Shown: positions 586 through 45,039 of the stretch, one piece after another | Layout: every line of letters starts with the position of its first letter | How positions within the stretch are numbered: the stretch's first letter is position 1 | Source of the DNA: Escherichia phage DTL | Strand: one strand, 5' to 3' | Sequence record: MG050172 | DNA: 45,814 nt | Program-made: the position numbers and the translations under genes | The notes under the pieces: model-generated | The model's database searches: none | Seen by the model: only the letters and a program-made list of their open reading frames with translations | Told to the model about the DNA's origin: nothing

Positions 586-1722
586 ATGGCAACTGCAAAG
601 ATTACCAACGAAGAACTTCGCGAAGAGCTGAAAAATGGCATGACCAACAAGGCAATCTCAGAGAAGTACGGAATGAACATTCGCAACGTTGAATTGCGTC
701 GTAGTAAATTGGCAAAATCCGGCGAGCTTCATGGAAACCCTGGAATTAAGAAGCTAGTTCCTGACGGCTATTTGGTCAAGGGGACTTCAACAATGATTGA
801 CGCTGAAGGTAACGAAAAGATTATATGGGTAAAGACTTCAATAGACAATGAGCGCCTTGAAGTACTAATGGAGCAAGCTCGAGAGGCATTTTGTTCAGAG
901 TTGCCAAAAGCTATTCCATCTCAATCACCTAATGTTAACTTTGATGATAACACGCTTTCTATGTATCCAGTTTTTGATTTGCACATTGGGGCAATGGCTC
1001 ACAAACATGAGTGCGGCGAAAACTATGATACAGCAACAGCAGAGAAGGTTATGAATGGGTTCTTTGACTACGCTGTAGATAAGGCACCAAACTCTAAGAA
1101 TGCTGTATTGGTATTGGGTGGCGATTTCCTACATTACGATTCTCTGGAGGCTAAAACCCCGGCATCAGGTCACATATTAGATAGTGACAGTCGTTACGCC
1201 AAGATTGTTTATGTCGCAATCCGGTCAGTTCGTCGTGCGATTTCTAGAATGATGGAAAAGCATCAAGTTATTGATATTAAAGTAATAAGTGGGAATCACG
1301 ACGAGGCTGGGATGGTTTGGCTTCGCGCTGCTCTTGCTGCATTTTATGAAGACGAACCGCGAGTAAATGTTGATGTTAGCCCAGCTGCAATGATGATGAC
1401 AAGCTTTGGAACGACGCTTATTGGATACACGCATGGTCACCAAATGCGAAAAGCCGATACCCGACTAACTGTTATGGCAACTGATTTTCGTAAGTTATTT
1501 GGTCAAAGTGAGTATGTTTACACACATAGCGGACACTGGCATTCGCAGAAGATTACAGAAACAAACCTGGGAATTGATGAGGTTCACGGGCAGCTTGGAA
1601 GTCCTGACGCGTACTCCGCAAATGGCGGCTGGCGCTCTCAACGTCAAGCGGCAGTTATTGTCTACCATAAAGAATTCGGTGAAGTTGGTCGATTCATTTG
1701 TCGCCCTAAAATGTTTAGCTAA
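586..1722 (+). CDS. putative metallophosphoesterase with N-terminal HTH-like region
   Basis: 378-aa ORF; calcineurin-like motifs LGGDFLHYD and SGNHDE; RBS AAGGAA upstream; stop TAA abuts ATAGCAC element. Confidence 0.5.
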   Translation: MATAKITNEELREELKNGMTNKAISEKYGMNIRNVELRRSKLAKSGELHGNPGIKKLVPDGYLVKGTSTMIDAEGNEKIIWVKTSIDNERLEVLMEQAREAFCSELPKAIPSQSPNVNFDDNTLSMYPVFDLHIGAMAHKHECGENYDTATAEKVMNGFFDYAVDKAPNSKNAVLVLGGDFLHYDSLEAKTPASGHILDSDSRYAKIVYVAIRSVRRAISRMMEKHQVIDIKVISGNHDEAGMVWLRAALAAFYEDEPRVNVDVSPAAMMMTSFGTTLIGYTHGHQMRKADTRLTVMATDFRKLFGQSEYVYTHSGHWHSQKITETNLGIDEVHGQLGSPDAYSANGGWRSQRQAAVIVYHKEFGEVGRFICRPKMFS

Positions 1723-1793
1723 TAGCACCTTTTGTTAAAACAGTAGCCGCGAAAGCGGCTATTATTGTTTTATAGAAACGACAGGAGATTGAA

Positions 1794-2222
1794 ATGAATT
1801 GGCATGAACATTACGATTACAAAGATGGAAAGCTTTATAGGAAGTACCAAAACCACAATCACCCGGCAGGAAAGGAGTGTGGCTGGATTGATTTAAGGGG
1901 TTACGTTAGGACTAAGCTGTTTTCAAAGATGACTTTTGCCCATCTAGTAATATGGGAAATGCATAACGGAGAGGTTCCCGAGGGCATGGAGATCGACCAC
2001 ATTAATGGAGTTAAGCATGATAACAGGATTGAGAACCTAAGGTGCGTAGATAGGTGGGTAAACTGCAAGAATATGGCGAAGAGAAAAGACAATAAAAGCG
2101 GGCAAACTGGAGTTAGTTACGTTGAGTCAAGAAATGTTTGGGTAGTAAGTATACATGTAAACAAATTCACACATAGTCACACGTGCGATACGAAAGATGA
2201 GGCAATTTCAATTGCAAAATAA
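1794..2222 (+). CDS. HNH homing endonuclease
   Basis: Signature AHLVIWEMHNGEVPEGMEIDHINGVKHDNRIENLR; RBS GGAG upstream. Confidence 0.8.
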   Translation: MNWHEHYDYKDGKLYRKYQNHNHPAGKECGWIDLRGYVRTKLFSKMTFAHLVIWEMHNGEVPEGMEIDHINGVKHDNRIENLRCVDRWVNCKNMAKRKDNKSGQTGVSYVESRNVWVVSIHVNKFTHSHTCDTKDEAISIAK

Positions 2223-2348
2223 ATTTACGCAGAAAACCCAGAATTCACAGAGAGGCACGGTAAATAGCACTTTTTGCCTAACCCACGCCGTAGAAATACG
2301 GCATAATCACCACATCGAAACGAGACAAACCAAGAGAGGAAGCACAAA

Positions 2349-2525
2349 ATGACTAAAATGATTTATTGCACCAAGAACAACTCCAAGACACTGCCATTTA
2401 CAGTTAACCAGCCGTACAATGCAGAGTATCAGGGTGACGGATACTACAAAATTTACGGTGACGATATGACGTGGATTTTAGCGCCGATTGACGGTTCGTT
2501 GGTTGAATTTATTATCGCAGACTAG
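2349..2525 (+). CDS. small hypothetical protein (58 aa)
   Basis: ATG after RBS-like AGAGAGGAAG; preceded by CATCGAAACGAGAC leader motif; followed by terminator. Confidence 0.3.
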   Translation: MTKMIYCTKNNSKTLPFTVNQPYNAEYQGDGYYKIYGDDMTWILAPIDGSLVEFIIAD

Positions 2526-4075: not shown

Positions 4076-5659
4076 TCACCCCAGCAGTCGCGGATTAATG
4101 TAAACTTTATCACCAATCAGGCACGTATAGTTCTTCTCATCGAGCATCGGCAGTAAGTGATCTTTAATCTTCGTCATTACTCCAGCCTGAGCCTCGAACG
4201 GCTTAACCTTGCGAGCCGCTTCATACAATGAACGAATGCCAACAACACCCTTACCGTTTTTGCCTTGCTTGATCAGAATGTCAATCAACTTATTCATCTC
4301 GGCATTGTCACCAGCGTGACCTGCGGCATTAGCAGATGAAAGGTAAGTTTTGCTTAGTTCATTAAACATAATTACAGCTTCTTGCATGGTATCCAATTCA
4401 ATTTCCCTGGACTTCTGCGGACTACCACCATTTGGGTTGAACCAGTTACGCACAGTGTGAAGAACCGCCGCAATCCTGATAGCCTGTTTATCGAATTTAC
4501 CCAGGGCGCCGCGCAGCATCGTGTGCGAATATTTTCCGCCGTCAGCAAGGTGCGGCTCCATTTCCTGGCGTGCTTTGTTGAGATATTTCATTGCCGAGTT
4601 GCTAACCGTGAGCTTAACATCTTGTTCGTTCATTATTTCGTGAACCAAGCGGAAATAATCAGCCTTCAGCCCACCATCAATAGGTTCGTAAGTTGAGTCT
4701 CCATTCTCATCAACGAACACGCGCTCGCCAAGAAATGACTTCTCGCGTACAAGCAGAAAACGCTCAGAAACACCGATACCACGCGCACCAGCATTCATGA
4801 TTGCGTTAATCGTCTCATCCTGCGCAATTACAGATATGCAGCCCATAGCAACGAAACTCATATTATTCTCTGAGTTCGCGCGCGCAATAGATACGTTACC
4901 CGCATCCCACGCTTTAAGCACGAGTTCGCTGTTCGTTTTCTTAGAGCCATCACCATAGGTCATGCCTAAAAGTGAGTTAACGCTAGTTGCTTCGTCAGAA
5001 ATTACCGCAAAGTTGCCCTGACGGTTGTTTATTCGCGCAAGACCTTCCGGCGTGGTGTCGGATACGGGGAAAACGATATCGCAAAGTTTCTCGAGCTTTT
5101 CCTCAAGATCCTCCTTCTCCTCAAAAAGAGAGGCCATCTCTGACGGAGATTTTTCCTGCTTAATCTCTTTGGATAATGCAGATAGTTTGGCCATAATCTT
5201 TTTTCGCTCACGTTTTCGCACTTCATTAAGCCGCTCAGTCTCAGCAATCATTGGAGCAATTGAAAGTGAGTTGATTGCTGATTTACCAGTCGATGGCGGC
5301 TGGCTTGTTACAACATAAAGCGAAGTTGGTTGCTGAGTTCCGTGATACTCAACTGTAAATCGTCCTAGCATGGCGGCAGAAATACACCCCAGGAAGTGCA
5401 TGTATGCGGACGACTCCGGAAACTGAACAGAACGAGCGATATTGGATGATAGTTTGCCAACAACATCAATATCATTACCCAATGAGATTACGGGATACTT
5501 GTCATTAGCCGCATCAATCTCGACTGGCGCTTTCCAGAATGATTGAGACTGGCGATATCCATTAGCATTAATAGCGACTCGCAGTGGGGTGAGGTTGTCT
5601 GCTGCAGCAATTGCCATAACCTGTTCAACAGATAGTTTATCTTCGTTGAAATCAAACAT
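4076..5659 (-). CDS. hypothetical protein (527 aa), full-length member of a two-member paralog family
   Basis: Long ORF; N- and C-terminal ~40 and ~80 aa are homologous to the 140-aa product of 8671..9093. Confidence 0.5.
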   Translation of the reverse strand: MFDFNEDKLSVEQVMAIAAADNLTPLRVAINANGYRQSQSFWKAPVEIDAANDKYPVISLGNDIDVVGKLSSNIARSVQFPESSAYMHFLGCISAAMLGRFTVEYHGTQQPTSLYVVTSQPPSTGKSAINSLSIAPMIAETERLNEVRKRERKKIMAKLSALSKEIKQEKSPSEMASLFEEKEDLEEKLEKLCDIVFPVSDTTPEGLARINNRQGNFAVISDEATSVNSLLGMTYGDGSKKTNSELVLKAWDAGNVSIARANSENNMSFVAMGCISVIAQDETINAIMNAGARGIGVSERFLLVREKSFLGERVFVDENGDSTYEPIDGGLKADYFRLVHEIMNEQDVKLTVSNSAMKYLNKARQEMEPHLADGGKYSHTMLRGALGKFDKQAIRIAAVLHTVRNWFNPNGGSPQKSREIELDTMQEAVIMFNELSKTYLSSANAAGHAGDNAEMNKLIDILIKQGKNGKGVVGIRSLYEAARKVKPFEAQAGVMTKIKDHLLPMLDEKNYTCLIGDKVYINPRLLG

Positions 5660-5733
5660 TACTTCTCTCCGTATTGTTTCTGAGCGGCCATTATATCAAC
5701 GACCGCTTATAATTCATTATCAATTTTTGCTAT

Positions 5734-6087
5734 TTACAGGTATTGAGCCTCAAAATAGTACGTGCCACAGAGAGTAAAGAACCCAACACCCTCACTTCGG
5801 TAAAGCTGCCATGGCTGACCATCTTCGTCATAAATGTATCCGGCATTTTGTCCAAGCCCCGCATGAAGTGCCACCTGGTATCTCTTTCCAAGCTTGAATG
5901 ACTTCTTAAGTGATGAGTTGTGGTTAACTCTGGTTACATAAAGAGTCTTGGTCTTAATGTATTTGCCGCGCTCTTCAAGGTTAAACCATTTGCCATCTTT
6001 CTTGATTTGATCCACTCCATCTTTAACGCGAGCCTTGTATAGTACGTTTTCGTTGCTGATCCAGTTTTTAGTAATCGTAGTGGTCAT
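5734..6087 (-). CDS. hypothetical protein
   Basis: 117-aa ORF; preceded on its own strand by the TATATT -10 and CATCGAAACGAAAC leader. Confidence 0.45.
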   Translation of the reverse strand: MTTTITKNWISNENVLYKARVKDGVDQIKKDGKWFNLEERGKYIKTKTLYVTRVNHNSSLKKSFKLGKRYQVALHAGLGQNAGYIYDEDGQPWQLYRSEGVGFFTLCGTYYFEAQYL

Positions 6088-6150
6088 TTTGTTTGCCTTC
6101 GTGTGTTTCGTTTCGATGAGATGAATATACAGGAAAAGCCCCGAATGGCT

Positions 6151-6402
6151 TTAGCAATTAGTGCTATTTATTGCATTGAGTCCAAGTGGTGTTATCACTA
6201 CATTATACCAAGTTCCAATCTCTGGCTTATTTACATTATATGCCATCTCTACATAGCCTAGCCGAAATAGTTTTGGTATACACCTGGATGACTTGCCAGA
6301 ATCTCGAATCCTGCCTCGACTAAAGTCATAACTTATTTGATGAATCTCTCCATTATGAATGCAGTGGAGGGTTTTTATTGCGGATTCAGAAATTTTAATC
6401 AT
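6151..6402 (-). CDS. hypothetical protein
   Basis: 83-aa ORF; its stop lies within a minus-strand copy of the ATAGCAC element. Confidence 0.4.
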   Translation of the reverse strand: MIKISESAIKTLHCIHNGEIHQISYDFSRGRIRDSGKSSRCIPKLFRLGYVEMAYNVNKPEIGTWYNVVITPLGLNAINSTNC

Positions 6403-6568: not shown

Positions 6569-7093
6569 TTATCTCCCGTGGTTTTTGTGGAATTTACCAT
6601 TCGCAAACTCAGCTCTAGCAGCAATTGCATCATCTATGTTGTCATAAAAACCAAGATGATATCTTTTCTTTTCGTATCTGGCGTAGGCGGCGAACTTTCC
6701 TGTTCGGCTCATGTAGCAAACACCAGTAACTCCGGTCTTGTTGTCAGACCTTCTTTTGGCGTTCCTTGTGTTTTCTGACCACGTTGCCAGCCTTAGGTTT
6801 GATATGTGGTTGTTTGATTTATCACCATCTATGTGGTCAACAACCATTTCATCTGGAACCTTTTGACCTGTCTCTATCTCGTAGACTATCTTATGAACAC
6901 AGTATAGCTTTGCGTGTATGCCAACTTGATGATACCCACTATTTGAAAGCTTGCATCCGCATGGCTTATTTGCGTGTCTTTTATTCCACCTCTTTAAGTC
7001 CCAATCTATATTGTTAGTGTGAGTGTCGATCGTTCTCTCCTTGAAGTAAGGGACTCCATCAACAAGATAAATATATTTAGAGAAGTCCATCAC
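6569..7093 (-). CDS. HNH homing endonuclease
   Basis: Motif VVDHIDGDKSNNHISNLRLATWSEN plus AP2-like C-terminus. Confidence 0.8.
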   Translation of the reverse strand: MMDFSKYIYLVDGVPYFKERTIDTHTNNIDWDLKRWNKRHANKPCGCKLSNSGYHQVGIHAKLYCVHKIVYEIETGQKVPDEMVVDHIDGDKSNNHISNLRLATWSENTRNAKRRSDNKTGVTGVCYMSRTGKFAAYARYEKKRYHLGFYDNIDDAIAARAEFANGKFHKNHGR

Positions 7094-7329: not shown

Positions 7330-7342
7330 ATTTCAATCCTCA

Positions 7343-7516
7343 AAATGGAATGCAGTGATTACAACCCTCACCACTACAACAGAAATCTTCATCTTCTGAC
7401 TGGAATTGCTTTGCCAGATCAATGTCTAGCTTTCCGCGCACCACAAGGTCTGTGTAATCTTCGTTAAGTCCAATCAGTGCACATTCGTGACGTAACTCAT
7501 CTTTATCAAGCTTCAT
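7343..7516 (-). CDS. small Cys-containing hypothetical protein (57 aa)
   Basis: ORF found by eye with CCSGEGCNHC; first gene downstream of the minus-strand promoter element at 7571..7590. Confidence 0.3.
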
Positions 7517-7739
7517 GTCTTTCTCCTCGCTGTTGATGGGTTAACTATATCCCCACTAACTCATAATGTCTTTAGCAAAAAGTGCCATTCGTTAGATTTA
7601 TGGATTGTTGCAGATATTGCAATGATTCTCATGATTATTGCGTATATAGCAATATTGCTTCAGATGCAATGATTTTTTTGATTGTTGCGAAAAGTGAAAT
7701 GAAGTGGTGAGTGAGTGAATGAAAGAATGATGGACTACC

Positions 7740-8191: not shown

Positions 8192-8671
8192 ATGAGCGAG
8201 AAGGTAACATTAGGCCAAGTGATTCGTGAGATGGTAAAAGCAGCGCTTAATTCTGAGGATAAGCAGATCAGCGTGACACTCAACAAGATTGAGAGCCTTA
8301 TTGGCGCCGAGGATGGTGGTCTACACAAGCTTAAGAGCTCATACATCTACAATACAACGGCTCGTATGCCTGAGTTGAGAGGCGCGGGGCTGAAGGCAAC
8401 TCACCATTATGATGAGGAAAGGGGTATTAATGAATTTACTGGGAGTGAGATACTTGGGGATAAAAAGCTGGTTATCAAGCTGATTCCTGGAACTGCAAAC
8501 ATTGGAATCAGAAAGAAGACCAACGACGCGATCAAGGATGAGGCAATCACTGAGTTCAAGTCCAGGATTTCTAAGGTGATGCCAGACCTTTCTGAGTATG
8601 AAGGTGAGGCGCTTGCTGCTGCGATGAAGGCCATTAAAGATTACCGTCTAATTATTGAGGAGATTAAGTAA
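8192..8671 (+). CDS. hypothetical protein
   Basis: ATG after RBS GAGGAG; track ORF 8183..8671. Confidence 0.45.
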   Translation: MSEKVTLGQVIREMVKAALNSEDKQISVTLNKIESLIGAEDGGLHKLKSSYIYNTTARMPELRGAGLKATHHYDEERGINEFTGSEILGDKKLVIKLIPGTANIGIRKKTNDAIKDEAITEFKSRISKVMPDLSEYEGEALAAAMKAIKDYRLIIEEIK

Positions 8672-21815: not shown

Positions 21816-22472
21816 ATTGCTCATTTATCAAATGGCACGCAGGTCTTCGTAGAAGGCTCTCGCGGAGCTGCAATTAACGTAACTGCAATTTCTAACGCAG
21901 TTACCCCTGTTTTAACCGTAGCTGACGGCTCTGGTATTGAGGTTGGCAATCACCTCCTGTTTACCGCGTCTTCCTCTACACTGCTTGCTGACAAGCATGT
22001 CCGAGTTACCGCAGTTACTGGTACATCAATCACAGTTGAAGGTATCGATACTTCTAGTACAACAAAATTCCCGGAGGGGTTGACTGGTGAAGTGGTTAAG
22101 ATTCTTTCCTGGTTCGAGGTTCCATGCGTTCAAGATGTATCCACTGACGGCGGCGAGCAGCAGTTCGTTAGCTTCCAGTGCTTGTCAGATGACCGTGAGC
22201 AGCAGATTCCGACTTATAAATCTGCCGTAACAAACACGTTCACCTTTGCTCATGAGTACACCAACCCGGTTTATCCGGTTCTGCGTAACTACGATGAGTC
22301 AGGGCAGGTTGTCGCAATTCATCTGTATGTTCCACGCGCACAGGAGATGCGTTTGCAGTCCGGCACTATCGCTTTCAACGACACGCCAACCATTGGTGTT
22401 AACGAAATCGAAACGGTGTCCATCTCGGTATCCATTCGTGGTCGACTGTCATCTGTGGCAGCACCAGCTTAA
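21816..22472 (+). CDS. major tail protein (start codon uncertain, apparent ATT)
   Basis: Frame open from 21789 to 22472 with no ATG/GTG/TTG until 22080; strong RBS GGAGGT 5 nt upstream of ATT 21816. Confidence 0.5.
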   Translation: MAHLSNGTQVFVEGSRGAAINVTAISNAVTPVLTVADGSGIEVGNHLLFTASSSTLLADKHVRVTAVTGTSITVEGIDTSSTTKFPEGLTGEVVKILSWFEVPCVQDVSTDGGEQQFVSFQCLSDDREQQIPTYKSAVTNTFTFAHEYTNPVYPVLRNYDESGQVVAIHLYVPRAQEMRLQSGTIAFNDTPTIGVNEIETVSISVSIRGRLSSVAAPA

Positions 22473-22500: not shown

Positions 22501-22582
22501 ATTGCATAGCACTTTTTGCTAAAGCGCTCGTTCAACTTTGCTGTATAGTTACTTCATCGAAACGAAATGAAGGAATTAAGAA

Positions 22583-26924: not shown

Positions 26925-27813
26925 TTGGAGAAAATCATGTTAAGTACAAAGTTTGAAAATCAGTTGCAAAGCCTTTTTCCTGGCGAGATTGTGACATTAA
27001 TCCAGGTTGACGGAACCTCTTTTGGCAGTCTCGTTTATTCGTTCCACAATGAGAACATTTCATACACACCTGAAGAGATCATGCTAGCCCAAATGAATGG
27101 CGAGCCACTACCAGAGAAAACCATCACCTTTCGTGGTGAAGAGTACGGGCCTCGCCCATTCGGTATCTCGGGCATTAATATGACCTCTGACGGAAAAGCC
27201 AACAAGGTTACACTAACAGTATCAAACGTAGACCAGCGCATTAGCGCATTGATTAGAACATACAACGGACTTGTTAAAGCTAAGGTTACCATATGGATTA
27301 CCACGAGAGATAACATCAATGAAGACGGAAGCATTGCTGATGGTGACTATCGCAGATTTGTTTACTTCATTGAGCGACCGAAGCAGGTTGATTACAAAAC
27401 TGCGTCATTTGAGCTTAGTAGCCCGATGGATATGGATGGCATTTACATCCCTGCCAGACTTGTTTGACTATCGCAGATTTGTTTACTTCATTGAGCGACC
27501 GAAGCAGGTTGATTACAAAACTGCGTCATTTGAGCTTAGTAGCCCGATGGATATGGATGGCATTTACATCCCTGCCAGACTTGTTCAATCGGTTTGCTAT
27601 TGGGCGTCCAGGGGCTGGTATCGTAGCGGTAATGGTTGCGGCTATGCTGGTAATAGATACTTCAACAAGGATGATGAGCCTGTGTCAGACCCCTCATTAG
27701 ACTTCTGCGCAGGAACTGTTAACAGTTGCAAAATTAGGTTTGGAGAGAATAATCAGCTGGACTTTGGTGGTTGCGCGGCAGCAAGTCTTCAGGCTAAAGC
27801 GAATCAATCATAG
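26925..27813 (+). pseudogene. minor tail protein (lambda L-like) frameshifted by a 121-bp tandem duplication
   Basis: Track ORFs 26925..27467 and 27271..27813 both encode DYRRFVYFIERPKQVDYKTASFELSSPMDMDGIYIPARLV in different frames. Confidence 0.6.
27344..27585 (+). repeat. perfect tandem direct duplication, 2 x 121 bp
   Basis: 27344..27464 and 27465..27585 identical base-for-base on hand comparison. Confidence 0.85.
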
Positions 27814-27866
27814 CACTTTTTGTTAAGAGGACGGCCCAGATTTGGGCTATCCTCTAATCTCTTAAA

Positions 27867-28364
27867 TTGGAGACAAAAATGAACTGGAATGAAATTTTCG
27901 AATACAGAGATGGCAAGATCTATTGGAAAGTTAGCCCTGGCAGGAGGGCTAAGGTTGGTTCGGAAGCTGGATCAAATCAAATAAAAGGGTATAGATTTGT
28001 GAAATTTCACGGAGTTTTATATATGACACACATGGTTATTTGGGAGATGCATAACTGTGAAATACCGCATGGAATGGAGGTTGACCATTTAAATCACATT
28101 AGGGACGATAACAGGATAGAGAATTTAAGAGTTGTTACAAAGTCAATTAATCAGAGGAATGCATCTAAAAGAATTGATAATAAAAGCGGTTTTACAGGCG
28201 TTTCTTGGTATCCCAAATATTCAAAGTGGAATGCTTACGCGACAGTAAATTCCAAGAGGTTTAATCTTGGTTACTTTGAATCAAAGCAAGATGCCTGTGT
28301 GGCTGTTAAAAAATTTAGGTCCATAAATTATTTTCATAAAAACCATGGAGTTGATTTATGTTAA
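27867..28364 (+). CDS. HNH homing endonuclease
   Basis: Motif HMVIWEMHNCEIPHGMEVDHLNHIRDDNRIENLR; inserted between L-like and K-like tail genes. Confidence 0.8.
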   Translation: METKMNWNEIFEYRDGKIYWKVSPGRRAKVGSEAGSNQIKGYRFVKFHGVLYMTHMVIWEMHNCEIPHGMEVDHLNHIRDDNRIENLRVVTKSINQRNASKRIDNKSGFTGVSWYPKYSKWNAYATVNSKRFNLGYFESKQDACVAVKKFRSINYFHKNHGVDLC

Positions 28365-33167: not shown

Positions 33168-34133
33168 TCAGTACATGTTTGGTATGTACGGCAACTGCAT
33201 TGATATGTTTGTATTGAATGGAAATTTAGCGCCAGTCTTTGTTGAGTAGTTTCCGATCACACTGCAAAACTCAGACCTGACAGAACCATTAGACATTACA
33301 ACCCCTTTATATCTAAGGTTGTTATAGCCACCAGTTACGCGAGTATAAGCTCCGGTCCTAAGTATGGGGAAGTATCCGTCACCTATTGACTGAAATGAGT
33401 TTGATATCTGAATGAATCCACCAAGCACAAAAGGCCTCTTGACAGTAGAGAATACAACCTGGCCGGCCGGGTTTGCTATTGTTATCCCCGGCCCGCCAAC
33501 CGGCGCAGTGTTGTTGAATATAACCAGGTCAACGACAACTGATGCCGACACGTTATCTATGCCGCCGTATGTGTTATTCCTGCAAAGAATCCTAGACCCA
33601 TCAAACTCGAGCGTAACGTTTGGATTACTCCACCTACCAAACGGGATTCCAGTTATTGGTAGTGTATAACTCCCATTCACCGTAACTCTACCAACAAACT
33701 GAGCTGTCATTAGCCTTGAGTTTGTCGTTATAGAGATAAAGTCAGTTGAGTTGGCAACAAGTATGCCTTGACCCGTGGACGCACCTGTTATTTCAAAGCA
33801 GTTTCCTGAGAAGTTTATCAGCCTTCCTTTAGCGCCGTTAAAGTTGCTAATATTTATTCTTCCTTGCGTATTTGATACCCGCTGGAATCCATTCATATAG
33901 TAAACCTCAGGTATAACATTGAAGTCTATAACATCAACAGCCTTTATTGGCAATGCGAATGCGGTTGATCCATCTGTTTGGCTAAGTGAAAATGTAAGAC
34001 CCCCAGACTGAGATGCAAAACTTTTAGTTGGAATAGATCCGGTCACATTAGGTGCTCTTAAGCCGGACGTTATCTGCATTGCTGGACTTCCATCATTCAG
34101 GTCTATTAGAATACCCTGTGGCATTATTTCCAC
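33168..34133 (-). CDS. hypothetical protein, possible receptor-binding protein
   Basis: 321 aa, Gly/Asn/Thr-rich; co-transcribed downstream of the Cor-like gene. Confidence 0.4.
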
Positions 34134-34366
34134 TCCTTAGAACCATGGTCTTTAATGGAGCCACCGTAACCGCCACCAGTGGCCTTAATTCCATCGTAGC
34201 GCACATCAACTTCGCCAGCTGGAACAACCACACCATTTTTCCATTTAGCCACGCATACGCCGCTTGCTTGCGTTGCACACCAACCATCAGGACGTGGACC
34301 TGATGAACAACCAACTGTCATTATTACTGCTGCTGAGATGATTACTGATTTGATGAAGTTAGTCAC
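34124..34366 (-). CDS. putative Cor-like superinfection-exclusion lipoprotein
   Basis: 80 aa, lipobox TVGCSS, GTG start, placed just beyond the J-like gene. Confidence 0.45.
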
Positions 34367-34399: not shown

Positions 34400-34860
34400 T
34401 GGGATAACTATACAACCGTCAGTGAGGAATGTCTTTAGCTATTCGTGCTATTGTATACACGTAACCGATGTAACTGCGTGTATACCAGTGCCATCCGCGA
34501 GAAATCGTATACGCCTAGTTACGCCTAGTTACGCATTGGTTACACTAAAATATCTATATATATCAACCTTTTACTATTATTATTATTATTATATATATTA
34601 CTGTGTATATCATGTAACTACCTCTATAGGGTGTTGCGGTTATAAATTTCTAATATGTACATTTATACAGTATCTATCAACCAGCACACCAACGCACCCT
34701 CCGCGAGAAGCGGTATACACGATATACACGCTGGTTACGCTGAGCTATGGCTGGCTTGATATGCCAAAAAACGTAACTAGTGCCAACGCCTACACGTAAT
34801 TACAAAGATTCACGCGTAAGTTTGAATCAACGATTGGAGAAACCAATTGGACCCAAGCCA
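34400..34860. promoter_or_regulatory. divergent control region B: iteron-like TAGTTACGC repeats, (TA)n and (ATT)n tracts
   Basis: CCTAGTTACG x2 at ~34513..34537, (ATT)n at ~34574..34592, GAGCTATGGCTGGCT block; homologous to 7740..8170. Confidence 0.5.
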
Positions 34861-35109: not shown

Positions 35110-35583
35110 ATGGAATACAAACTCTACTTCAATTACGACAATGGAAAGTTGATATGGAAAGTCAAAAAGAAATCAGGAAATCCGGGCTCAGAGGCTGGTA
35201 GTGTGATGAGGGATGGTTACATCATGGTTGGTTTAAATAGAAAACTAATTCTTGCTCACAGAATAGTTTGGGAAATGCTTAAAGGCCCGATACCTGAAGG
35301 TATGGAGATTGATCATATTAATCATTGTAGGTCAGACAATAGGATAGAAAACTTAAGGATGGTGAGTAAGCCGATAAATCAAAGAAATAGATCGAGATCA
35401 AAAAATAACACAAGCGTATTCACGGGAGTTTGTTGGAGTAAGTCAGCTTCAAAGTTGGTCTCATCAATGAAAGTTAACGGGAAAAAAATTCATCTTGGAT
35501 CGTTCGATGAAATACAAGATGCAATAGCTGCAAGAAAGTCAGCAAACCAAAAGTATAAATTTCACAAAAATCATGGAGAATAA
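35110..35583 (+). CDS. HNH homing endonuclease
   Basis: Motif HRIVWEMLKGPIPEGMEIDHINHCRSDNRIENLR. Confidence 0.8.
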   Translation: MEYKLYFNYDNGKLIWKVKKKSGNPGSEAGSVMRDGYIMVGLNRKLILAHRIVWEMLKGPIPEGMEIDHINHCRSDNRIENLRMVSKPINQRNRSRSKNNTSVFTGVCWSKSASKLVSSMKVNGKKIHLGSFDEIQDAIAARKSANQKYKFHKNHGE

Positions 35584-36550
35584 AATGTTTAAGGTTTTTA
35601 CGCGAGAAGAGTTAAGCAACGAAGAGTATCACTCAGAGTCTGACCACATCTCCGGTAGCTCACTTGTCGAGATTATCCAGGGCTCGCCAGCTAAGTGGAA
35701 ATTCAAGCGGCGTAATAGCGACAGCAAGGCGCTAAAGTTTGGAACCCTAAGCCACACGATGATTCTGGAGCAGGATGTATTTGATAAAGAATACCTTCGC
35801 GAAACCGATCTTGATGCCATCGAAGGCTTAATTACAAGCCAGACCGGATTATCAGCAGCACTTAAAAAAGTTGGCGTAGCTGGCACGTCTGGGAAGGGGT
35901 ATAGCGAGCTCGTAGAGATGATGTATCGTTCAGGTGAGTATTGGGATGTTAAATGGCTAATTGAGCAGCAGGATAGTGCTCAGGCTATTGCGGAGGGCAA
36001 GGAGCTAGTTAGCGCAGCAGATTACGACAAGGTTGTCGCGATGCGCGAGGTTCTTTGTAATATTCCTGCGTATGATGCAATTGTGAACAGTGAGACTGCG
36101 CAGAAGGAGTTATCAATCTTCGGTGAGATTCTAGGTGTTGGCGTTAAGATTCGAATTGACCACGTAGATGTTATTGATGGGGTTGTATGCATTACCGACC
36201 TGAAGACGACAGCCAGCGCATCACCTCAGGAGTTTGGTAGACTTGCATTCAAGCATGGTTATCTTGCAAAAATGGCGCTACAGCACGATGTTTTTGTTAG
36301 GGCTTTTAATGAAAAAAGAAAAACAAAAGTAAGGCTACTTGCGATCGAGAAAGAGGAGCCTTACCTACCAATGCTTTACAGCATTACAGAAGAGCAACTG
36401 AAGGTTGGCCGCAGGATGTATTTAGAGGCGCTTGCCACTTACAAAAAGTGCAAAGAGAATGATGAGTGGCCAGGTTATGCAATGGGCGCAACAGAGATTG
36501 ATTTAGATGTTCCTGAGTGGGATATGAGGAAGTATAGAGATGAAATATAG
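35573..36550 (+). CDS. PD-(D/E)XK family exonuclease (RecE/YqaJ-like recombination nuclease)
   Basis: Motif ITDLKT (D-x-K core); sits upstream of the ERF and SSB genes. Confidence 0.55.
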   Translation: MENKMFKVFTREELSNEEYHSESDHISGSSLVEIIQGSPAKWKFKRRNSDSKALKFGTLSHTMILEQDVFDKEYLRETDLDAIEGLITSQTGLSAALKKVGVAGTSGKGYSELVEMMYRSGEYWDVKWLIEQQDSAQAIAEGKELVSAADYDKVVAMREVLCNIPAYDAIVNSETAQKELSIFGEILGVGVKIRIDHVDVIDGVVCITDLKTTASASPQEFGRLAFKHGYLAKMALQHDVFVRAFNEKRKTKVRLLAIEKEEPYLPMLYSITEEQLKVGRRMYLEALATYKKCKENDEWPGYAMGATEIDLDVPEWDMRKYRDEI

Positions 36551-36619
36551 CACTAATTGCTAAAGACAAAATTAACGAGTGGGGTATGATTGCCACATCA
36601 ACAACGAACGAGGTTAAAG

Positions 36620-37270
36620 ATGCAAATTTCAGAGTCATGCAAGTCAATTTTAAACGCGCTACACACTGCTAAATCGCTATTTGCGAAGGCTGAAAAGTCT
36701 AAGCAGAACTCACACCTAAAGAACAAGTACGCAACCCTTGAAGACGTTTTGGCTGCTGTTGAGCCAGGACTTGATGAGTGCGGGCTGGTAATGTTCCAGA
36801 GCGTACTTGATGATGAACAAACGAATCGAATGAAGGTTGAGACAAAGCTATTTCACGCAGAATCTGGAGAGTGGGTTAGCTTCTTAATGATTGTACCAAT
36901 CAGCAAGAATGACGCGCAAGGTTACGGCTCAGCTTTAACATACGCTCGTCGCTACGGAATCACGGCGGCATTAGGACTTAGCCAGGCAGATGATGATGGA
37001 AATCTTGCAGCGAAGGGTGTCAAGGATTTCAAACGAGAGCTAGAGAAATGCAATGCTCTTGATGAACTGCGTAACGTCTGGAAAGAAGCAAAGCAGTCAC
37101 TTGACGCTGCCGGATGGAAGGTTTTTGAGCCACACATCATCGAGCGCAAGGCAGAGATTGAGGCAAACGCAGCAACTGGCTTCAACCCGGCAACACCAAA
37201 GAAAGTTGCAGAAAAAAGTAGTGCTAATGAAAAGACTGAAGTAGAATCACAACAAATCGACACATTCTGA
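36620..37270 (+). CDS. ERF-family single-strand annealing protein
   Basis: Motif GSALTYARRYGI; internal ATG 36620 with RBS GAGG preferred over track start 36590. Confidence 0.6.
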   Translation: MQISESCKSILNALHTAKSLFAKAEKSKQNSHLKNKYATLEDVLAAVEPGLDECGLVMFQSVLDDEQTNRMKVETKLFHAESGEWVSFLMIVPISKNDAQGYGSALTYARRYGITAALGLSQADDDGNLAAKGVKDFKRELEKCNALDELRNVWKEAKQSLDAAGWKVFEPHIIERKAEIEANAATGFNPATPKKVAEKSSANEKTEVESQQIDTF

Positions 37271-39956: not shown

Positions 39957-40026
39957 TGTGTAAAGTCTCCATTTGTAAAATAGCACTAATTGCTAAGTTG
40001 GATTGTAGCATCTTTCAGGTATAAAA

Positions 40027-40043: not shown

Positions 40044-40967
40044 TTAGCTATTCAATAAATCACTCGCCTTATATATCTTCTTCCTGATGCCGCTCTTGAA
40101 TGAGTATTCATCATTTGGTATTACCACCTCAACGTTCCTGTCATCCGCAACGCAAAGTAATTCCATATCAAGATTGCACGCCACTCTCAACTTGTAGTTT
40201 TTGAGCGCATAAGCAACCATCTCCATATTGTAGCTGGAGTGGCAAACAAGCGCGCAGCGGTTCCCAGTAGCAAGATGAACGCGAACACCATCAATCCAAT
40301 TATCGACAAGATAAGCGTACTCATCACTTTTAAAGGTACCAATAACAGCAACTGACTGACGGGTATAATCTTTTGCAGCATAACTAACAACTCCCTCTTC
40401 ATTTATAAACATTACATTGCACATCTCATCTGACAACCCATCACTATAAGCCATAAAGCACGGTATTGCGTGTATTAGTTCTCCTGATTTTGTCCTGCCA
40501 ACATCAAAACCAAACTCGCTATAGATTCCCTCGTATATACTGAGCGGAGTTGATTCTACTCTTTCCGTCCTTTCCATTATCTCTAAGCACCTTTTGTGGT
40601 CAATCTGAGCGCCCATTTTGTATAGTTTGGTTCTTGATGCTTGCTTGTTTGCTTTAACTATAACCTCAATTGGTGTTAAGTTCAGCCAGTCACCAAGCAA
40701 ATTTACTGAATCGGCGAAGGACGATCCAGTGCACTTCATGACCCATCCTATACCGGAGTCACTTCCGCATTTCGAACAAACTGCCGCGCCATTTCCTTTT
40801 TCACTGCCTATTTCGTCGGTAAATCTGAATCTGTCAGTGCCAAAGCAGTATGGGCATGGTCCGTGCTTCTTACTTAGGTGTCTATCATTCCAACCAAGTT
40901 CCTTTGCATAAAATGATTTCCACAATCCGGCCATCTTAGGTATAACTTCATTCTTATCGTAATTCAT
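40044..40967 (-). CDS. DNA primase (zinc-ribbon plus TOPRIM-like)
   Basis: Zn-binding CPYCFG...CSKCG at N-terminus; acidic TOPRIM-like C-terminal half. Confidence 0.65.
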   Translation of the reverse strand: MNYDKNEVIPKMAGLWKSFYAKELGWNDRHLSKKHGPCPYCFGTDRFRFTDEIGSEKGNGAAVCSKCGSDSGIGWVMKCTGSSFADSVNLLGDWLNLTPIEVIVKANKQASRTKLYKMGAQIDHKRCLEIMERTERVESTPLSIYEGIYSEFGFDVGRTKSGELIHAIPCFMAYSDGLSDEMCNVMFINEEGVVSYAAKDYTRQSVAVIGTFKSDEYAYLVDNWIDGVRVHLATGNRCALVCHSSYNMEMVAYALKNYKLRVACNLDMELLCVADDRNVEVVIPNDEYSFKSGIRKKIYKASDLLNS

Positions 40968-41443
40968 TTGCTTAACCCGTGATTTTCGTGAAAGTTGTAT
41001 TTTCTCTCTGCTTCAATTCTTACTTTATACGCCTGCTCTGGAGTATCGAAGTTCCCAAGGTGTAGCTGCTTGCCGTCAACCTTGATGTGAGCCTTAAATT
41101 TTCCGTGATTTAGCTTTGCCACTCCACAATAACCAGTTGTTGATAAAACGCTAATCTTGCAATTTCTTGAGTTACCTTGATTTGTTGTTACTCTTAGGTT
41201 TTCTATTCTGTTATCTAATTTGTTATGGTTTATATGATCAATGTAGTCGCCATTTTGAAGTTCTCCATTAAACATCTCCCACACAACTCTATGTACATAA
41301 GTCCTAAAGCCATTAACAGACACTTTGTAATAGCCAGATGTAGATAGTGAGTTGCACTCATCGCCAACCTTAACACGTCTTGCAGTGCTAATCTTCCAAT
41401 GCAATTTGCCATCTACATAGTAAAAATAATCATGCCAGTTCAT
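40964..41443 (-). CDS. HNH homing endonuclease
   Basis: Motif HRVVWEMFNGELQNGDYIDHINHNKLDNRIENLR. Confidence 0.8.
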   Translation of the reverse strand: MNWHDYFYYVDGKLHWKISTARRVKVGDECNSLSTSGYYKVSVNGFRTYVHRVVWEMFNGELQNGDYIDHINHNKLDNRIENLRVTTNQGNSRNCKISVLSTTGYCGVAKLNHGKFKAHIKVDGKQLHLGNFDTPEQAYKVRIEAERKYNFHENHGLSK

Positions 41444-41495
41444 TTTCTTCTCTCCAATAAAAAAAGGATGTACCGATTATGGCACATCCAATTAT

Positions 41496-41969
41496 TTACT
41501 CTTTAGCTTTTCGTGCGGCTTCGTTAGCTGCCTTAATCTTTCGCCATGATCGACACTCTGGCTTGGTGGCCAATTCAGCCTCGGTAACCACGCGAAGCAT
41601 GTGACGCTTCTTGCATCTAAGTGTCAGCGGCTTGCCGTTACCGTCGAATTGCAGGTCTGGGCGGCAGAATGTGGCTCGAAAGCCTTCTCCATTTCGCTTA
41701 TAGTAGTTGTGCGACAGCTGGGCACCGCGTGCAGAAATCATTCCACGCTTAAACCACTCCTCTACAGCCTGTGGAGTTACCTTTAACTGCTTTGCGATAT
41801 TCGCCTTTGTGCCGAAGAAATCAAGAACTATCTCGAGTCTCGCTCGTAGTCCGGATCTTACTTCATCTTTTAAAACGTAGTAACCTGAAGGTCGCTTCCG
41901 TTTCTTCTTGTCTTCAGTGCGGACAGTTCCGTTATTCCCGTTAATGGTTCGCTTGTCAACTGCATTCAT
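41496..41969 (-). CDS. putative HTH DNA-binding protein / transcriptional regulator
   Basis: Basic N-terminus and HTH-like ANIAKQLKVTPQAVEEWFKRG. Confidence 0.4.
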   Translation of the reverse strand: MNAVDKRTINGNNGTVRTEDKKKRKRPSGYYVLKDEVRSGLRARLEIVLDFFGTKANIAKQLKVTPQAVEEWFKRGMISARGAQLSHNYYKRNGEGFRATFCRPDLQFDGNGKPLTLRCKKRHMLRVVTEAELATKPECRSWRKIKAANEAARKAKE

Positions 41970-42070
41970 TTAATCACCTCAATAGCATTTTTTGTTAAAA
42001 GTCATTCTGATTTGATGGTAGTATTGTACTCAATTAAACGCTACAAGACAATTTTTATAGGAATTTAGAT

Positions 42071-44065
42071 ATGTTGCCTATCGAGAGGCTGGTTGCCAAC
42101 TTTGATAAAGAAAGAATTAAACAGATTCAGAAAGATTACCAGTTTGGCGAGATAACCCCTTACGAGTTCCAGTGCGTTACATTTGATGCTATCGGAAAGG
42201 CAATTGGGAAGTACGAAGCACCATTTATCGCTGACCTTTCCGTGTCTGCTGGTAAGACAATCATTCTTGCCATGATTGGTAAGCGCATGGAGCAGCTTGG
42301 GCTTCCTTATATGGTTCTATCTCGCCAGTCAGAGATAATCAGTCAGAACTCAGAAGAACTTCGTAATTTCGGCATCCGTAATAGCGTCTATTGCGCCGGC
42401 CTTAACGTTAAATCGGTTTACTACCCAATCATAGTTGCCAGTGAAGGTACGGCAGCCAACGGCTTGTTTAAGGGTCTTGGTGACTACGTTCCGGCCGTTA
42501 TCGCTATAGATGAGTGTCACATGGTCGATCATATGGATATTGTAGAGGCCGAAGAGAACGAAGAAACATTTGAGCAAATGAGCACAAAGAAAGGGGAGAT
42601 GGTTTTTAAGGATGGCGTAAATACCGGACTGCTTGGCACGGGTCGCGCGCAGTACACGCTAATCATTACTGAAATGAAGCGGCGTTGTCGTGAGAAATAC
42701 GGGCGTGAGCTTCGTATATTCGGTCTAACTGGCAGTCCGTATCGCAATAACGACCATATCGTCGTTAGTAATCCTAATATCCGTGGATTCTGGCGTAAAA
42801 CAGTAATTCAGGTCCCAACAAATTACCTGGTTGATTTGGGTTTTGTTGTTCCAACTGTTTACGGTGAGGTTGGTGATTTGGGATATGACCTTAGCGAATT
42901 CTCTCCTGATGGTAGTGATGGTGTGAAAGACTTTAGCAAGAAAGAAATGGAAGCGATGCAGGAAAAAATTCATCAAAACCAGTCCATGACTCAAAAGATT
43001 ATGCAGTTCGCAGCCAAGTTTATGGAAACTCGTAACGCAGCACTAGTAACTTGCTCAGGCAAGCGGCATTGCGAGGAAGCAGCAGCGGCGCTTCCTAAGG
43101 GTGTAACCTGGGCTATAGTAACTGACTCTACTGGTGAGAAAAAGCGTCGTGAGATTCTTTCTGACGCAGCTGAAGGTAAGTATAAATTCATCTTTCAGAT
43201 TGGTTGCCTCACAACCGGCGTGAACGTTCCGCCATGGGACACGTCAATAATTCTTCGAAAGGTTGGTAGCATCACGTTACTGATTCAGCTTTTGGGGCGA
43301 GGTATGCGAATTCTTAAGAAGAAGCATAAGGAAATGGGAATGGTTAAGGATGATCACGTGGTGCTGGACTTCGCTGGTACTCTTGATGAAATGGCGGAAT
43401 TGTACTTTGACCCAATCATAGAGGAAGTGCAGGACCAGAAATTTAAGTCTTCACGCAAAGGCGGCGATGAGCCAAGAATATGTCCGGCCTGTAGTTACGA
43501 GAACTCTCTTTTTGCTCGTCGTTGCAATAACGTAATTGACGGGAAGCGTTGTGAGCATTTTTTTACATTTCGCTTATGTGAAGATATAGAGGACCCGCAG
43601 ACAAAAGTTACTATTAAGAAAGGTTGTGGTGAAAAGAATGATATCGCCGCTAAAAACTGCCGCTGCTGCGGAGAAATGCTTATTGACCCTAACGCAAAAT
43701 TGTCTGGAAAGATGTATCGACAAGGTGATTGGTTGAGAGTTTACGGATTCAGCATTGGATTAACTAAAAACCAAACTGGAATAGTTGCTCGCTATGAAAT
43801 CATGTCGCATAGTGGGGATAGGTTTGTTGCTTACGAAACTTTCTTCCCAGAGAGTGACCATCGAGTTTGCTCTGTTAAGTGGAAGGCATTTTGCCAGGCG
43901 CACATCCAGAACAAAACGGAGGCATTTCGCATAGGAAGACTTCGCAATGCAAAAATGATTATGACTAACGCAAGTCAATTTCGTGAGCCAATGCGAGTGA
44001 CTCATAGAAAGAACCAGAAAGGTCAGGATATTATCGCCAATAAATCTTTTACTATGGAGGATTGA
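42071..44065 (+). CDS. SF2 DNA helicase (DExH-type) with C-terminal Cys-rich region
   Basis: Walker A SVSAGKT, Walker B/DECH IAIDECHMV, multiple CxxC pairs near C-terminus. Confidence 0.75.
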   Translation: MLPIERLVANFDKERIKQIQKDYQFGEITPYEFQCVTFDAIGKAIGKYEAPFIADLSVSAGKTIILAMIGKRMEQLGLPYMVLSRQSEIISQNSEELRNFGIRNSVYCAGLNVKSVYYPIIVASEGTAANGLFKGLGDYVPAVIAIDECHMVDHMDIVEAEENEETFEQMSTKKGEMVFKDGVNTGLLGTGRAQYTLIITEMKRRCREKYGRELRIFGLTGSPYRNNDHIVVSNPNIRGFWRKTVIQVPTNYLVDLGFVVPTVYGEVGDLGYDLSEFSPDGSDGVKDFSKKEMEAMQEKIHQNQSMTQKIMQFAAKFMETRNAALVTCSGKRHCEEAAAALPKGVTWAIVTDSTGEKKRREILSDAAEGKYKFIFQIGCLTTGVNVPPWDTSIILRKVGSITLLIQLLGRGMRILKKKHKEMGMVKDDHVVLDFAGTLDEMAELYFDPIIEEVQDQKFKSSRKGGDEPRICPACSYENSLFARRCNNVIDGKRCEHFFTFRLCEDIEDPQTKVTIKKGCGEKNDIAAKNCRCCGEMLIDPNAKLSGKMYRQGDWLRVYGFSIGLTKNQTGIVARYEIMSHSGDRFVAYETFFPESDHRVCSVKWKAFCQAHIQNKTEAFRIGRLRNAKMIMTNASQFREPMRVTHRKNQKGQDIIANKSFTMED

Positions 44066-44066
44066 T

Positions 44067-44540
44067 ATGAATTGGAATGACATTTTCGAGTATAGTGATG
44101 GGCAGCTATTCTGGAATGAGAAGGGAAAAAGCCGCAAGATGGGAGTGGCGGTTGGTGCCATTCGTGACAATGGTTATATCCAGGTAGGGTACAATCGCAA
44201 GCTGTACCTTGCTCATCGCATCGTGTGGGAAAAGCATAATGGGCCGATACCTGAGGGCATGATGGTAGATCACATAAACCATATTAGAGATGATAATAGG
44301 ATAGAAAACCTTAGATTGGTAAATTGCAAGGACAATACAAGAAACACCAGCATAAGGTCTGACAACAATACTGGTCACCACGGTGTTTGCTGGTGTAATC
44401 GCAGGCTTAAGTGGTACGCAAGGATAAATATTGACGGTAAAAATAAGTTTTTAGGTTACTTCATAACAAAAGCTATGGCCATAGAGGCAAGAAAGCAAGC
44501 CGAGAAGTTATATGGATTCCACGAAAACCATGGAGTTTAG
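44067..44540 (+). CDS. HNH homing endonuclease
   Basis: Motif HRIVWEKHNGPIPEGMMVDHINHIRDDNRIENLR. Confidence 0.8.
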   Translation: MNWNDIFEYSDGQLFWNEKGKSRKMGVAVGAIRDNGYIQVGYNRKLYLAHRIVWEKHNGPIPEGMMVDHINHIRDDNRIENLRLVNCKDNTRNTSIRSDNNTGHHGVCWCNRRLKWYARINIDGKNKFLGYFITKAMAIEARKQAEKLYGFHENHGV

Positions 44541-44961
44541 AGTGAAAATTACAGACAAGGTTGATTATATTGAGTTTTACCCAGGTCCAGTTAAGTCTTG
44601 CCCTAAAGAGGATGACGAACAAATCTTTTGCTCTGATTGGGTTAAGTATAACTATCCAGAGATGGTATTTTTCCACTGCGTGAATGAGGGTAAGAAAACC
44701 ATTGGACAAGCAAGAAAGGACCAGGCAAAAGGTTTGCTTAAGGGTGTCTCGGACTGCTTATTCCTGATACCTGAATCACTTAGAGGAAAGCACCCTTTCG
44801 GGGCAATAGAGCTAAAGAGAGCAGGAAAAACTCAGGCCAGTCCAGTCAGTGACGAGCAGAGGTCCTTCCTGAAAAGCGTAAGAGAATCAGGCGGTTTCGC
44901 GGCCGTAGCTTACGGACGTGAAGGATTTCTAGCGGCATTTAGAGAGATGATTTCAAAATAG
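44530..44961 (+). CDS. VRR-NUC domain nuclease
   Basis: Pattern DCLFLIPE...IELKRAGKTQASPVSDEQ; start ambiguous (44512 or 44530). Confidence 0.5.
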   Translation: MEFRVKITDKVDYIEFYPGPVKSCPKEDDEQIFCSDWVKYNYPEMVFFHCVNEGKKTIGQARKDQAKGLLKGVSDCLFLIPESLRGKHPFGAIELKRAGKTQASPVSDEQRSFLKSVRESGGFAAVAYGREGFLAAFREMISK

Positions 44962-45039
44962 CACGAATTGCTAAAGACGTTTCGGTGAGTTGGTGTATTA
45001 TCTATTCATCGAAACGAAACGCACAAAGAGAGAAATAAA

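Follow-up and report, generated by a model that had tools for sequence, protein, structure and literature searches.

A repeat that ends genes in Escherichia phage DTL is probably the marbox-like half of a promoter cassette shared by T1-like phages

Why do genes of a phage stop, again and again, at the same few bases? The question is raised by the genome of Escherichia phage DTL (sequence record MG050172, 45,814 nucleotides (nt); this whole stretch is called the window below), in which an exonuclease gene, 586..1722, closes on the TAA that opens the sequence TAATAGCAC at 1720-1728 and in which the heptamer ATAGCAC recurs at the ends of other genes. Sequence comparison places the genome among the T1-like siphophages (Drexlerviridae, Braunvirinae), close to Rtpvirus. 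Over the first 12 kb it shows ~87% identity to AugustePiccard, BEK2, IME253 and JeanPiccard in a patchy alignment that covers only 55-70%. A preliminary description had offered two explanations of the element, either a recombination junction for modular gene exchange or a stop codon and a regulatory site fused in a compact genome, and did not recognise it as a published repeat or as a marbox-type site. The explanation towards which we lean, on the evidence of sequence, is that the element forms the upstream half of a repeated promoter cassette and would be read by an activator of the MarA/SoxS/Rob type. The box itself is already known, and the new point is its likely marbox identity.

A 2024 re-annotation of phage TLS had described a 21-nt direct repeat, aaATAGCACnnnTTGnTAAAA, in 21 copies that run along transcription ~76 nt before start codons (PMC11447400). 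The same repeat was reported in T1, Rtp and Rogue1, its function was left open, and no more than three sigma-70-like promoters turned up in the entire TLS genome (PMC11447400). In the window, 16 copies match this consensus at no more than two mismatches. ATAGCAC occurs 13 times against 6.1 +/- 2.5 in shuffled sequences (shuffle maximum 12), and TAAATAGCAC five times where 0.06 is expected. The cassette drawn from the 16 copies consists of ATAGCACnnWTTGYTAAA, an 18-base-pair (bp) gap after the 20-bp box, TATAGT or TATAAT, the conserved start region CATCGAAACGA, a ribosome-binding site and ATG. The box is asymmetric (ATAGCAC-nnW-TTGYTAAA-nn) and the gap is unconserved. Except for one antisense copy, 39980, the boxes are oriented with transcription and lie 72-89 nt before a start codon (for example, 1722 to 1794, 10723 to 10796 and 11173 to 11247).

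A census was then taken over eight T1-like genomes, the window and seven annotated relatives (IME253, AugustePiccard, Rtp, T1, BEK2, TLS and JeanPiccard), in which boxes followed by a -10-like hexamer starting at box position 38-40 were counted. The logo of the 141 copies (A1 T2 A3 G4 C5 A6 C7, variable 8-10 with W at 10, T11 T12 G13 Y14 T15 A16 A17 A18) agrees with the published TLS consensus. G4, C5 and A6 are conserved in 100% of the copies, C7 in 92% and G13 in 99%. The hexamer starts at position 39 in 124 copies and at 38 or 40 in the rest, most commonly as TATAGT, CATAAT, TATTAT, TATATT or TATAAT. A scan for sigma-70 pairs of -35 and -10 hexamers gave no enrichment (22 found versus 25 expected). 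The box is not palindromic, A1/A17, C7/T11 and Y14/G4 not being complementary, and its asymmetric conservation is what would be expected of a monomer with a pair of helix-turn-helix (HTH) motifs, not of a symmetric dimer. A palindromic dimer site (TAGCA-N5-TGCTA) was dropped as a candidate on the ground of this asymmetry.

The soxbox/marbox consensus is AYNGCACNNWNNRYYAAAYN (PMC2064960), and the MarA motif derived from chromatin immunoprecipitation is GCAHWWWWTGYYAAA (PMC6900184). Wherever the marbox/soxbox consensus AYNGCACNNWNNRYYAAA specifies a base, from position 1 to 18, the phage box agrees with it. When the window was searched with the IUPAC marbox pattern, 19 matches with at most one mismatch were found, 11 of them exact, whereas 2.24 were expected (maximum 6). 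The variable box positions (8-10, 14 and 19-20) are the degenerate positions of the consensus, and the invariant ones (G4 C5 A6 C7, G13 and A16-18) are its core. The marbox of the mar operator (MG1655), taken as the reverse complement, shares 16 of its 20 bases with the phage box. In the micF promoter of the same E. coli strain, ACAGCACTGAATGTCAAAAC is followed by 18 bp, TAGAAT and the annotated MicF 5' end (+1), so that the phage cassette equals micF in orientation and in the 18-bp gap to the -10; the box lies forward, with GCAC distal and AAA proximal to the -10. With the -10 taken as -12..-7 the box spans -50..-31, overlaps the -35 region and is centred near -41, the start site being a predicted one. 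Class II promoters that respond to MarA, SoxS, Rob or RamA carry a site in forward orientation that clusters at -41, a canonical -10 and no recognisable -35, and Rob or SoxS displaces sigma region 4 at micF (PMC10268841, PMC12052159, PMC8811837). Altogether, the repeat has both the sequence and the geometry of a class II marbox promoter. No link between the repeat and the marbox was found in the literature searched on the motif and on Drexlerviridae with transcription start sites, MarA or marbox.

The proposed mechanism runs as follows. The activator, a monomer with two HTH motifs like MarA, SoxS or Rob and most probably supplied by the host, would bind the box centred near -41 and recruit sigma-70 RNA polymerase, and transcription would start at the A of ATCGAAACGA. 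The 18-bp gap would be free because class II promoters use no -35, and it sometimes houses the terminator hairpin of the upstream gene. The TAG at box positions 2-4, the TAA at 15-17 and a TAA that the A-rich 5' flank readily makes at -3 close all three frames, and in a compact genome the upstream genes extend up to or into the box. A module of box, promoter and gene could thus be inserted at the 3' end of a gene and still terminate that gene. Since the box is the sole sequence common to otherwise unrelated cassettes, crossovers between relatives would often fall there. Around the predicted transcript start, ~51 nt after the box start, the sequence (C)ATCGAAACGA(A/G)A is conserved across cassettes and across T1, TLS and the Rtp-like phages (examples at 6118..6108 on the minus strand, 22555-22566 and 45007-45018).

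Which protein would read the box? An activator of the MarA kind encoded by the phage was rejected after two negative results: a phmmer --max search of every six-frame open reading frame (ORF) of the eight genomes, with MarA, SoxS and the N-terminus of Rob as queries, gave a best E-value of 0.69, and a Pfam scan of 30 proteins of the window gave no AraC/HTH_18 domain. The regulator that the phages conserve, 41496..41969(-), is Cro-like and falls below the Pfam threshold. Since no phage protein of the AraC type was found, host MarA, SoxS and Rob are the likeliest readers, and their binding to the boxes is the most economical inference. We would go further only tentatively: it is possible that in the T1-like phages (Drexlerviridae) the majority of transcription units depend on ~16-20 class II marboxes of near-consensus sequence, driven by host MarA/SoxS/Rob, with Rob as the obvious candidate. 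Rob is activated by bile salts in the gut.

Several points weigh against the marbox explanation. The 141 census copies come from related genomes and are not independent, so common descent inflates the counts. At position 19, where the consensus has Y, the phage box mostly carries A or G, and micF too has A there; the 18-bp spacing was compared directly with one E. coli promoter, micF. In the searchable literature no start-site, binding or expression data for T1-like phages were found. Unstressed laboratory E. coli contains scarce MarA and SoxS and largely inactive Rob, yet T1 grows very well in it, and we know of no rob, marA or soxS host mutant that is T1-resistant; the three are redundant, however. 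Finally, the conserved Cro-like HTH regulator is encoded beside one box and could be the real reader.

When stops were tabulated for each copy and frame, counting from the A of ATAGCAC as 0, they fell at offsets -3, -2, +1 and +14 relative to the motif, and the view that upstream genes end in or at the element was confirmed. Nine of the 63 curated window genes stop inside or abutting a box, with the 16 box windows making up ~0.4% of the strand length, and these stops include four of the ten TAG stops among the curated genes. Over the eight genomes, an ORF of at least 40 amino acids (aa) ends at -4..+14 in 106 of the 141 copies (75%): 51 on TAG at +1, 20 on TAA at -3, 12 at -2 and 19 on TAA at +14. 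The rule is seen separately in T1, in TLS and in the Rtp group; for TLS, setting the published repeat table against the annotation shows that most repeats have a stop at -3, +1 or +14. The stop-in-box layout is real and general across the T1 group.

Individual genes required some correction. Gene 11023..11172 ends, as had been described, on a TAA directly before ATAGCAC, and 9692..9910, 35573..36550 and 44512..44961 end on the TAG within it. Gene 586..1722 does end at the TAA but, instead of abutting the box, overlaps it by one base with a double stop, TAA TAG. The end of 10105..10722 at -3 also stands, although this frame has a stop at codon 74 (10324-10326) and the part that runs open to the end is 10339..10722. 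The two frames described for 26925..27813 are really one gene, broken by a 121-nt tandem duplication, that ends on the box TAG. For 6151..6402(-), the TAA before ATAGCAC (6170..6168) proved to lie in another frame, the true stop being the TAA of TTGCTAA (6153..6151) at +14. Gene 5734..6087(-), absent from the earlier list, belongs with these: its stop is the TAA at -3 relative to the variant box 5733. With TAA at -3/-2, TAG at +1 and TAA at +14 the box closes all three frames, not two as had been stated.

TAA at -3 is also present at boxes 2264, 9192 and 6167, where no intact window gene ends. Boxes 2264 and 9192 are only apparent exceptions because their upstream genes are truncated in the window genome: in AugustePiccard the 161-aa HNH homologue ends on the TAA of the counterpart of box 2264, and in IME253 the 174-aa (525-nt) homologue of 8671..9093 ends on the box TAG. 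The T of the -3 TAA was rejected as an intrinsic base of the motif, the triplet being present in 13% of the copies where no gene ends there, roughly what multiplying the single-base frequencies would give. What is part of the motif is the A-rich flank, and the T occurs when serving as a stop. Genes of T1-like phages lie close together, overlapping or only a few bases apart, and the overlap of stop and box is a new but modest point, accounted for by compaction and the box's own sequence. The idea of a stop and a regulatory site fused in a compact genome has support: the element would be the upstream part of a promoter cassette with a fixed 18-bp gap, into which upstream genes run. The gap sometimes holds more than promoter sequence. 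A terminator-like hairpin is present in 17 of the 141 cassettes (versus 1.5% of control positions) and a GC hairpin in 35, overall ~12-25%; the TLS terminators T62 and T57 are of this type, with the hairpin within the promoter gap. A terminator in every cassette was considered and rejected, since only a minority carry one.

Is the element also a recombination junction? Breakpoints were taken from blastn alignments of the window to five Rtp-like genomes, with the box window set at -8..+27. Of 219 block ends, 28 fell in box windows (1.3% of the genome) and 19 more in the rest of the cassette. Junctions with a box had a breakpoint in at least one of the five comparisons in 14 of 16 cases and those without a box in 21 of 48 (Fisher P = 0.003), box junctions being longer targets and divergent spacers alone being able to break a high-scoring segment pair without exchange. 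The proposed coincidence of gene presence/absence breaks with the box was thus observed, but not as a property of the box only, and the recombination junction holds as an enrichment while many breakpoints lie at gene boundaries free of boxes.

At base-pair level, IME253 consists here of the end of the window exonuclease gene, ATAGCAC and the window's box-2264 cassette. The 542-nt unit present or absent comprises the rest of box 1722, its promoter, the HNH gene and the first 7 nt of box 2264; therefore a 542-nt HNH module was gained or lost with the crossover inside ATAGCAC. At the junction of the tail genes L and K, BEK2 and JeanPiccard have neither box nor HNH module, AugustePiccard has TAA-ATAGCAC and an ORF, and the window and Rtp have TCA-TAG-CAC and an HNH gene, the C-terminus of the L protein (...NQS) being kept across all variants. 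Six HNH_3 homing-endonuclease genes were detected (Pfam E 1e-17 to 1e-20; 1794-2222, 6569-7093, 27867-28364, 35110-35583, 40964-41443 and 44067-44540), each a block absent from some or all of the five relatives, and only two, 1794 and 27867, have a box promoter of their own. The cassettes, as far as their sequences tell, serve as module junctions too. Of the six HNH insertions, four use junctions that have no box, and therefore exchange at the boxes looks like a consequence of shared sequence, not their purpose.

Other explanations have to be weighed against an activator of the MarA type. The box might be read by a phage protein, for example, the Cro-like regulator (T1 gp23, Rtp52, TLS gp57), acting as an activator or as a stoperator-style repressor, in which case the resemblance to the marbox would be due to convergence or of no account. 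This regulator is encoded in all T1-like genomes compared and adjoins a box, its gene in TLS has one of only three sigma-70 consensus promoters (P57) and so could be made first, TAGCA-N5-TGCTA in the box is partly palindromic, and stoperators or enhancer-binding sites were proposed by the TLS authors (PMC11447400). We nevertheless regard a phage reader as rather unlikely. Conservation of the box is asymmetric, position 14 (C/T) spoils the palindrome in 28% of the copies and single-HTH proteins of the Cro type normally bind symmetric sites; a position-for-position match to a 20-bp host consensus together with the micF spacing would hardly be a coincidence, as ~0.04 exact matches per genome are expected (~21 bits) versus the 11 found. 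For the stoperator form in particular, the fixed distance to the -10 points to an activator, not to a roadblock, and T1-like phages are virulent, without repressor-based lysogeny. It is improbable that the box is mainly a recombination signal, a dedicated crossover site with promoter-like surroundings as a secondary matter. The ~10-fold enrichment of breakpoints in the box, its excess over box-free junctions, crossovers that can be placed inside ATAGCAC and the RecE-like and Erf-like recombination proteins encoded by the phage would all suit such a site, but the strict 18-bp gap, the single orientation and the ~74 nt to the start codon are promoter traits needless for a crossover, and exchanges are numerous at junctions without a box, among them those of four HNH genes. 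Sequence common to cassettes would attract homologous exchange as a by-product, as argued for the cassettes of T4-type phages discussed below.

A protein-independent part of a sigma-70 promoter, that is, a UP element or a displaced -35, with stops as a by-product of A/T richness and compaction, is very improbable in our judgement. TTGCTA resembles a -35 hexamer and GACA after some boxes makes a partial -35 at positions 17-22 (site 7572), and UP elements are mentioned by the TLS authors (PMC11447400); however, 22 bp separate TTGCTA from the -10, more than sigma region 4 can span, and it was rejected as an ordinary -35, and the invariant G4 C5 A6 C7 and G13 are unlike a UP element, with its A/T tracts at -40 to -60, which was rejected for this G/C core. 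A sigma-54 promoter (TGGCAC-N5-TTGCW), which has GG at -24 and GC at -12, was also dismissed: the box, TAGCAC-N3-TTGC, is 2 bp short, GG occurs in two of the 141 copies, and the downstream -10 would be out of place. Hardly any credence can be given to an element acting in RNA, as a signal for translation termination or processing in read-through transcripts. Three-frame stops and frequent downstream hairpins speak for it, yet no conserved RNA structure takes in the box, copies in divergent regions (34451-, 41982+ and 7588-) have no upstream gene to terminate, and the fixed distance to the -10 is a feature of DNA.

The copies of the box in the window are collected in Table 1.

Table 1. Box copies in the window, with the stops of upstream genes (offset from the A of ATAGCAC in brackets) and the genes that each copy is predicted to drive
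Box (strand)	Sequence	-10-like hexamer	Upstream gene and stop	Predicted to drive	Remarks
1722..1741 (+)	ATAGCACCTTTTGTTAAAAC	TATTAT 1760-1765	exonuclease 586..1722, TAA 1720-1722 (-2), TAG next in frame	HNH gene 1794..2222	terminator-like hairpin 1742-1763 in spacer
2264..2283 (+)	ATAGCACTTTTTGCCTAACC	CATAAT 2302-2307	TAA 2261-2263 ends no intact gene in window; HNH 1794..2222 truncated	2349..2525 and lysis genes	
5714..5733 (-)	ATAGCAAAAATTGATAATGA	TATAAT 5695..5690	5734..6087(-), TAA 5736..5734 (-3)	helicase gene 4076..5659(-)	variant box
6148..6167 (-)	ATAGCACTAATTGCTAAAGC	TATATT 6129..6124	6151..6402(-), TAA 6153..6151 (+14, within TTGCTAA)	5734..6087(-)	
7569..7588 (-)	ATGGCACTTTTTGCTAAAGA	TATAGT 7549..7544, box position 40	no abutting gene	7340..7516(-) and genes after	
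9192..9211 (+)	ATAGCACTTTTTGTTAAACC	TATAGT 9230-9235	8671..9093, truncated in window		
9907..9926 (+)	ATAGCAAGTTTTGTTAAAAG	CATAAT 9945-9950	9692..9910, box TAG 9908-9910		variant box
10723..10742 (+)	ATAGCACGAATTGCTAAACC	TATAGT 10761-10766	P-loop NTPase 10105/10339..10722, TAA 10720-10722 (-3)		spacer hairpin CCCTCTCCGGAGGG
11173..11192 (+)	ATAGCACGAATTGCTAAACG	TATAAT 11211-11216	11023..11172, TAA 11170-11172 (-3)		
22506..22525 (+)	ATAGCACTTTTTGCTAAAGC	TATAGT 22544-22549	major tail gene ends 22472	22583.. and tape-measure genes	separate terminator precedes; 87-aa ORF reaching box TAG probably spurious
27810..27829 (+)	ATAGCACTTTTTGTTAAGAG	TATCCT 27848-27853	minor tail L (27271..27813 part), box TAG 27811-27813	HNH gene 27867..28364	
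34432..34451 (-)	ATAGCACGAATAGCTAAAGA	TATAGT 34412..34407, box position 40		34124..34366(-) and 33168..34133(-)	divergent region
36547..36566 (+)	ATAGCACTAATTGCTAAAGA	TATGAT 36585-36590	exonuclease VIII 35573..36550, box TAG 36548-36550	Erf-like gene (~36620..37270)	
39980..39999 (+)	ATAGCACTAATTGCTAAGTT	none at usual distance			antisense to local genes; between primase terminator and start of minus-strand tail-fibre gene (ATG 39956)
41982..42001 (+)	ATAGCATTTTTTGTTAAAAG	TAGTAT (-10-like), box position 38		helicase gene 42071..44065	variant box; divergent region beside Cro-like regulator gene 41496..41969(-)
44958..44977 (+)	ATAGCACGAATTGCTAAAGA	TATTAT 44996-45001	VRR-NUC 44512..44961, box TAG 44959-44961	45040...	

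The antisense arrangement of box 39980 is kept in Rtp, IME253, BEK2, JeanPiccard, AugustePiccard and T1. On the minus strand of 39980-40010 there is an extended -10 (TGcTACAAT, 40010..40002) whose predicted start falls inside the box, and through this copy the late tail-fibre gene might be repressed. A degenerate box, GCCGCACGAAAAGCTAAAGA, was noticed on the minus strand at 41476-41519, where the Cro-like regulator gene has its 3' end; after it come a terminator hairpin, GGATGTGC-CATAAT-CGGTACATCC, and seven T, the loop of the hairpin being a -10 hexamer, and the arrangement is kept in all Rtp-like genomes. Beyond the named phages, the viral contigs IMGVR_UViG_2974611538 and IMGVR_UViG_2974571228 (IMG/VR loci L053-L055 and L078-L080), of ~41.5 kb, hold five to six exact box copies each; typical T1-like genomes measure 46-52 kb.

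Several genes of the window genome are disrupted. At 27344-27585, inside the minor tail L gene, 121 nt are perfectly repeated in tandem (27344-27464 = 27465-27585), which shifts the reading frame; the alignments with all five relatives break off at 27464 and start again at 27466, and the duplication looks like an assembly overlap artefact rather than biology. AugustePiccard and JeanPiccard have intact homologues (204-205 aa) of the P-loop NTPase gene, and the stop at codon 74 in the window is due either to a nonsense mutation or to an error of sequencing. In the major tail protein gene, ATT stands at 21816-21818 where the first residue of IME253 aligns, five bases after GGAGG, and is either a rare start or an error. 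Genes 1794-2222 and 8671-9093 stop 42 and 99 nt early in comparison with their homologues (161 aa, AugustePiccard HNH; 174 aa, IME253).

The marbox explanation gives the question left open for the repeat (PMC11447400) a specific and testable answer. If it is true, a classic family of virulent phages would use a host activator of stress response and antibiotic resistance as a general transcription factor, and phage productivity would be tied to the multidrug-resistance regulon of the host. The receptor of TLS is TolC, and activation of the tolC promoters by MarA, SoxS and Rob is stated in the title of a reference in PMC6900184. There would be a bearing on phage therapy of mar-activated, drug-resistant Enterobacteriaceae and on the way in which phage yield changes with salicylate, with bile or under oxidative stress. 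The placing of stops in the box, in some cassettes with a terminator in the promoter gap as well, illustrates the extent to which regulatory and coding signals can overlap and offers a concrete reason why modules of promoter and gene can enter gene ends without damage.

How does the cassette compare with known systems? The TLS repeat and the window box are the same in sequence, in orientation, in the ~74-76 nt to the start codon and in the T/G/A subgroups of the central triplet; the TLS paper calls the repeats intergenic and contains no fixed 18-bp distance to a -10, no stops in the repeat, no match to the marbox and no breakpoints (PMC11447400). With class II promoters of MarA/SoxS/Rob(/RamA), such as micF, the cassette shares consensus positions 1-18, the forward site, the 18-bp gap, a predicted centre near -41 and a good -10 with no -35. 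The phage has ~16-20 near-consensus copies per 46-kb virulent genome, whereas the host sites are degenerate and scattered, and the phage boxes overlap coding ends and terminators and usually lack Y at position 19. The promoter-early stem-loop (PeSL) cassettes of T4-type phages (PMC2839356, PMC4122927) are likewise short, repeated composites of promoter (and terminator) between small genes, at boundaries of insertion, deletion and replacement among close relatives. PeSLs, however, are early promoters of sigma-70 consensus with an obligatory stem-loop, whereas the phage cassette would have an activator-type box, holds a hairpin in a minority of copies and is found in early, replication, lysis and tail regions alike. 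The stoperators of mycobacteriophage L5, an analogy taken from PMC11447400, resemble the box in their many asymmetric copies, in one orientation to transcription, at gene ends; they need a prophage repressor and block elongation, whereas the T1-like phages are virulent and their box keeps a fixed distance to the -10 that would be needless for a roadblock.

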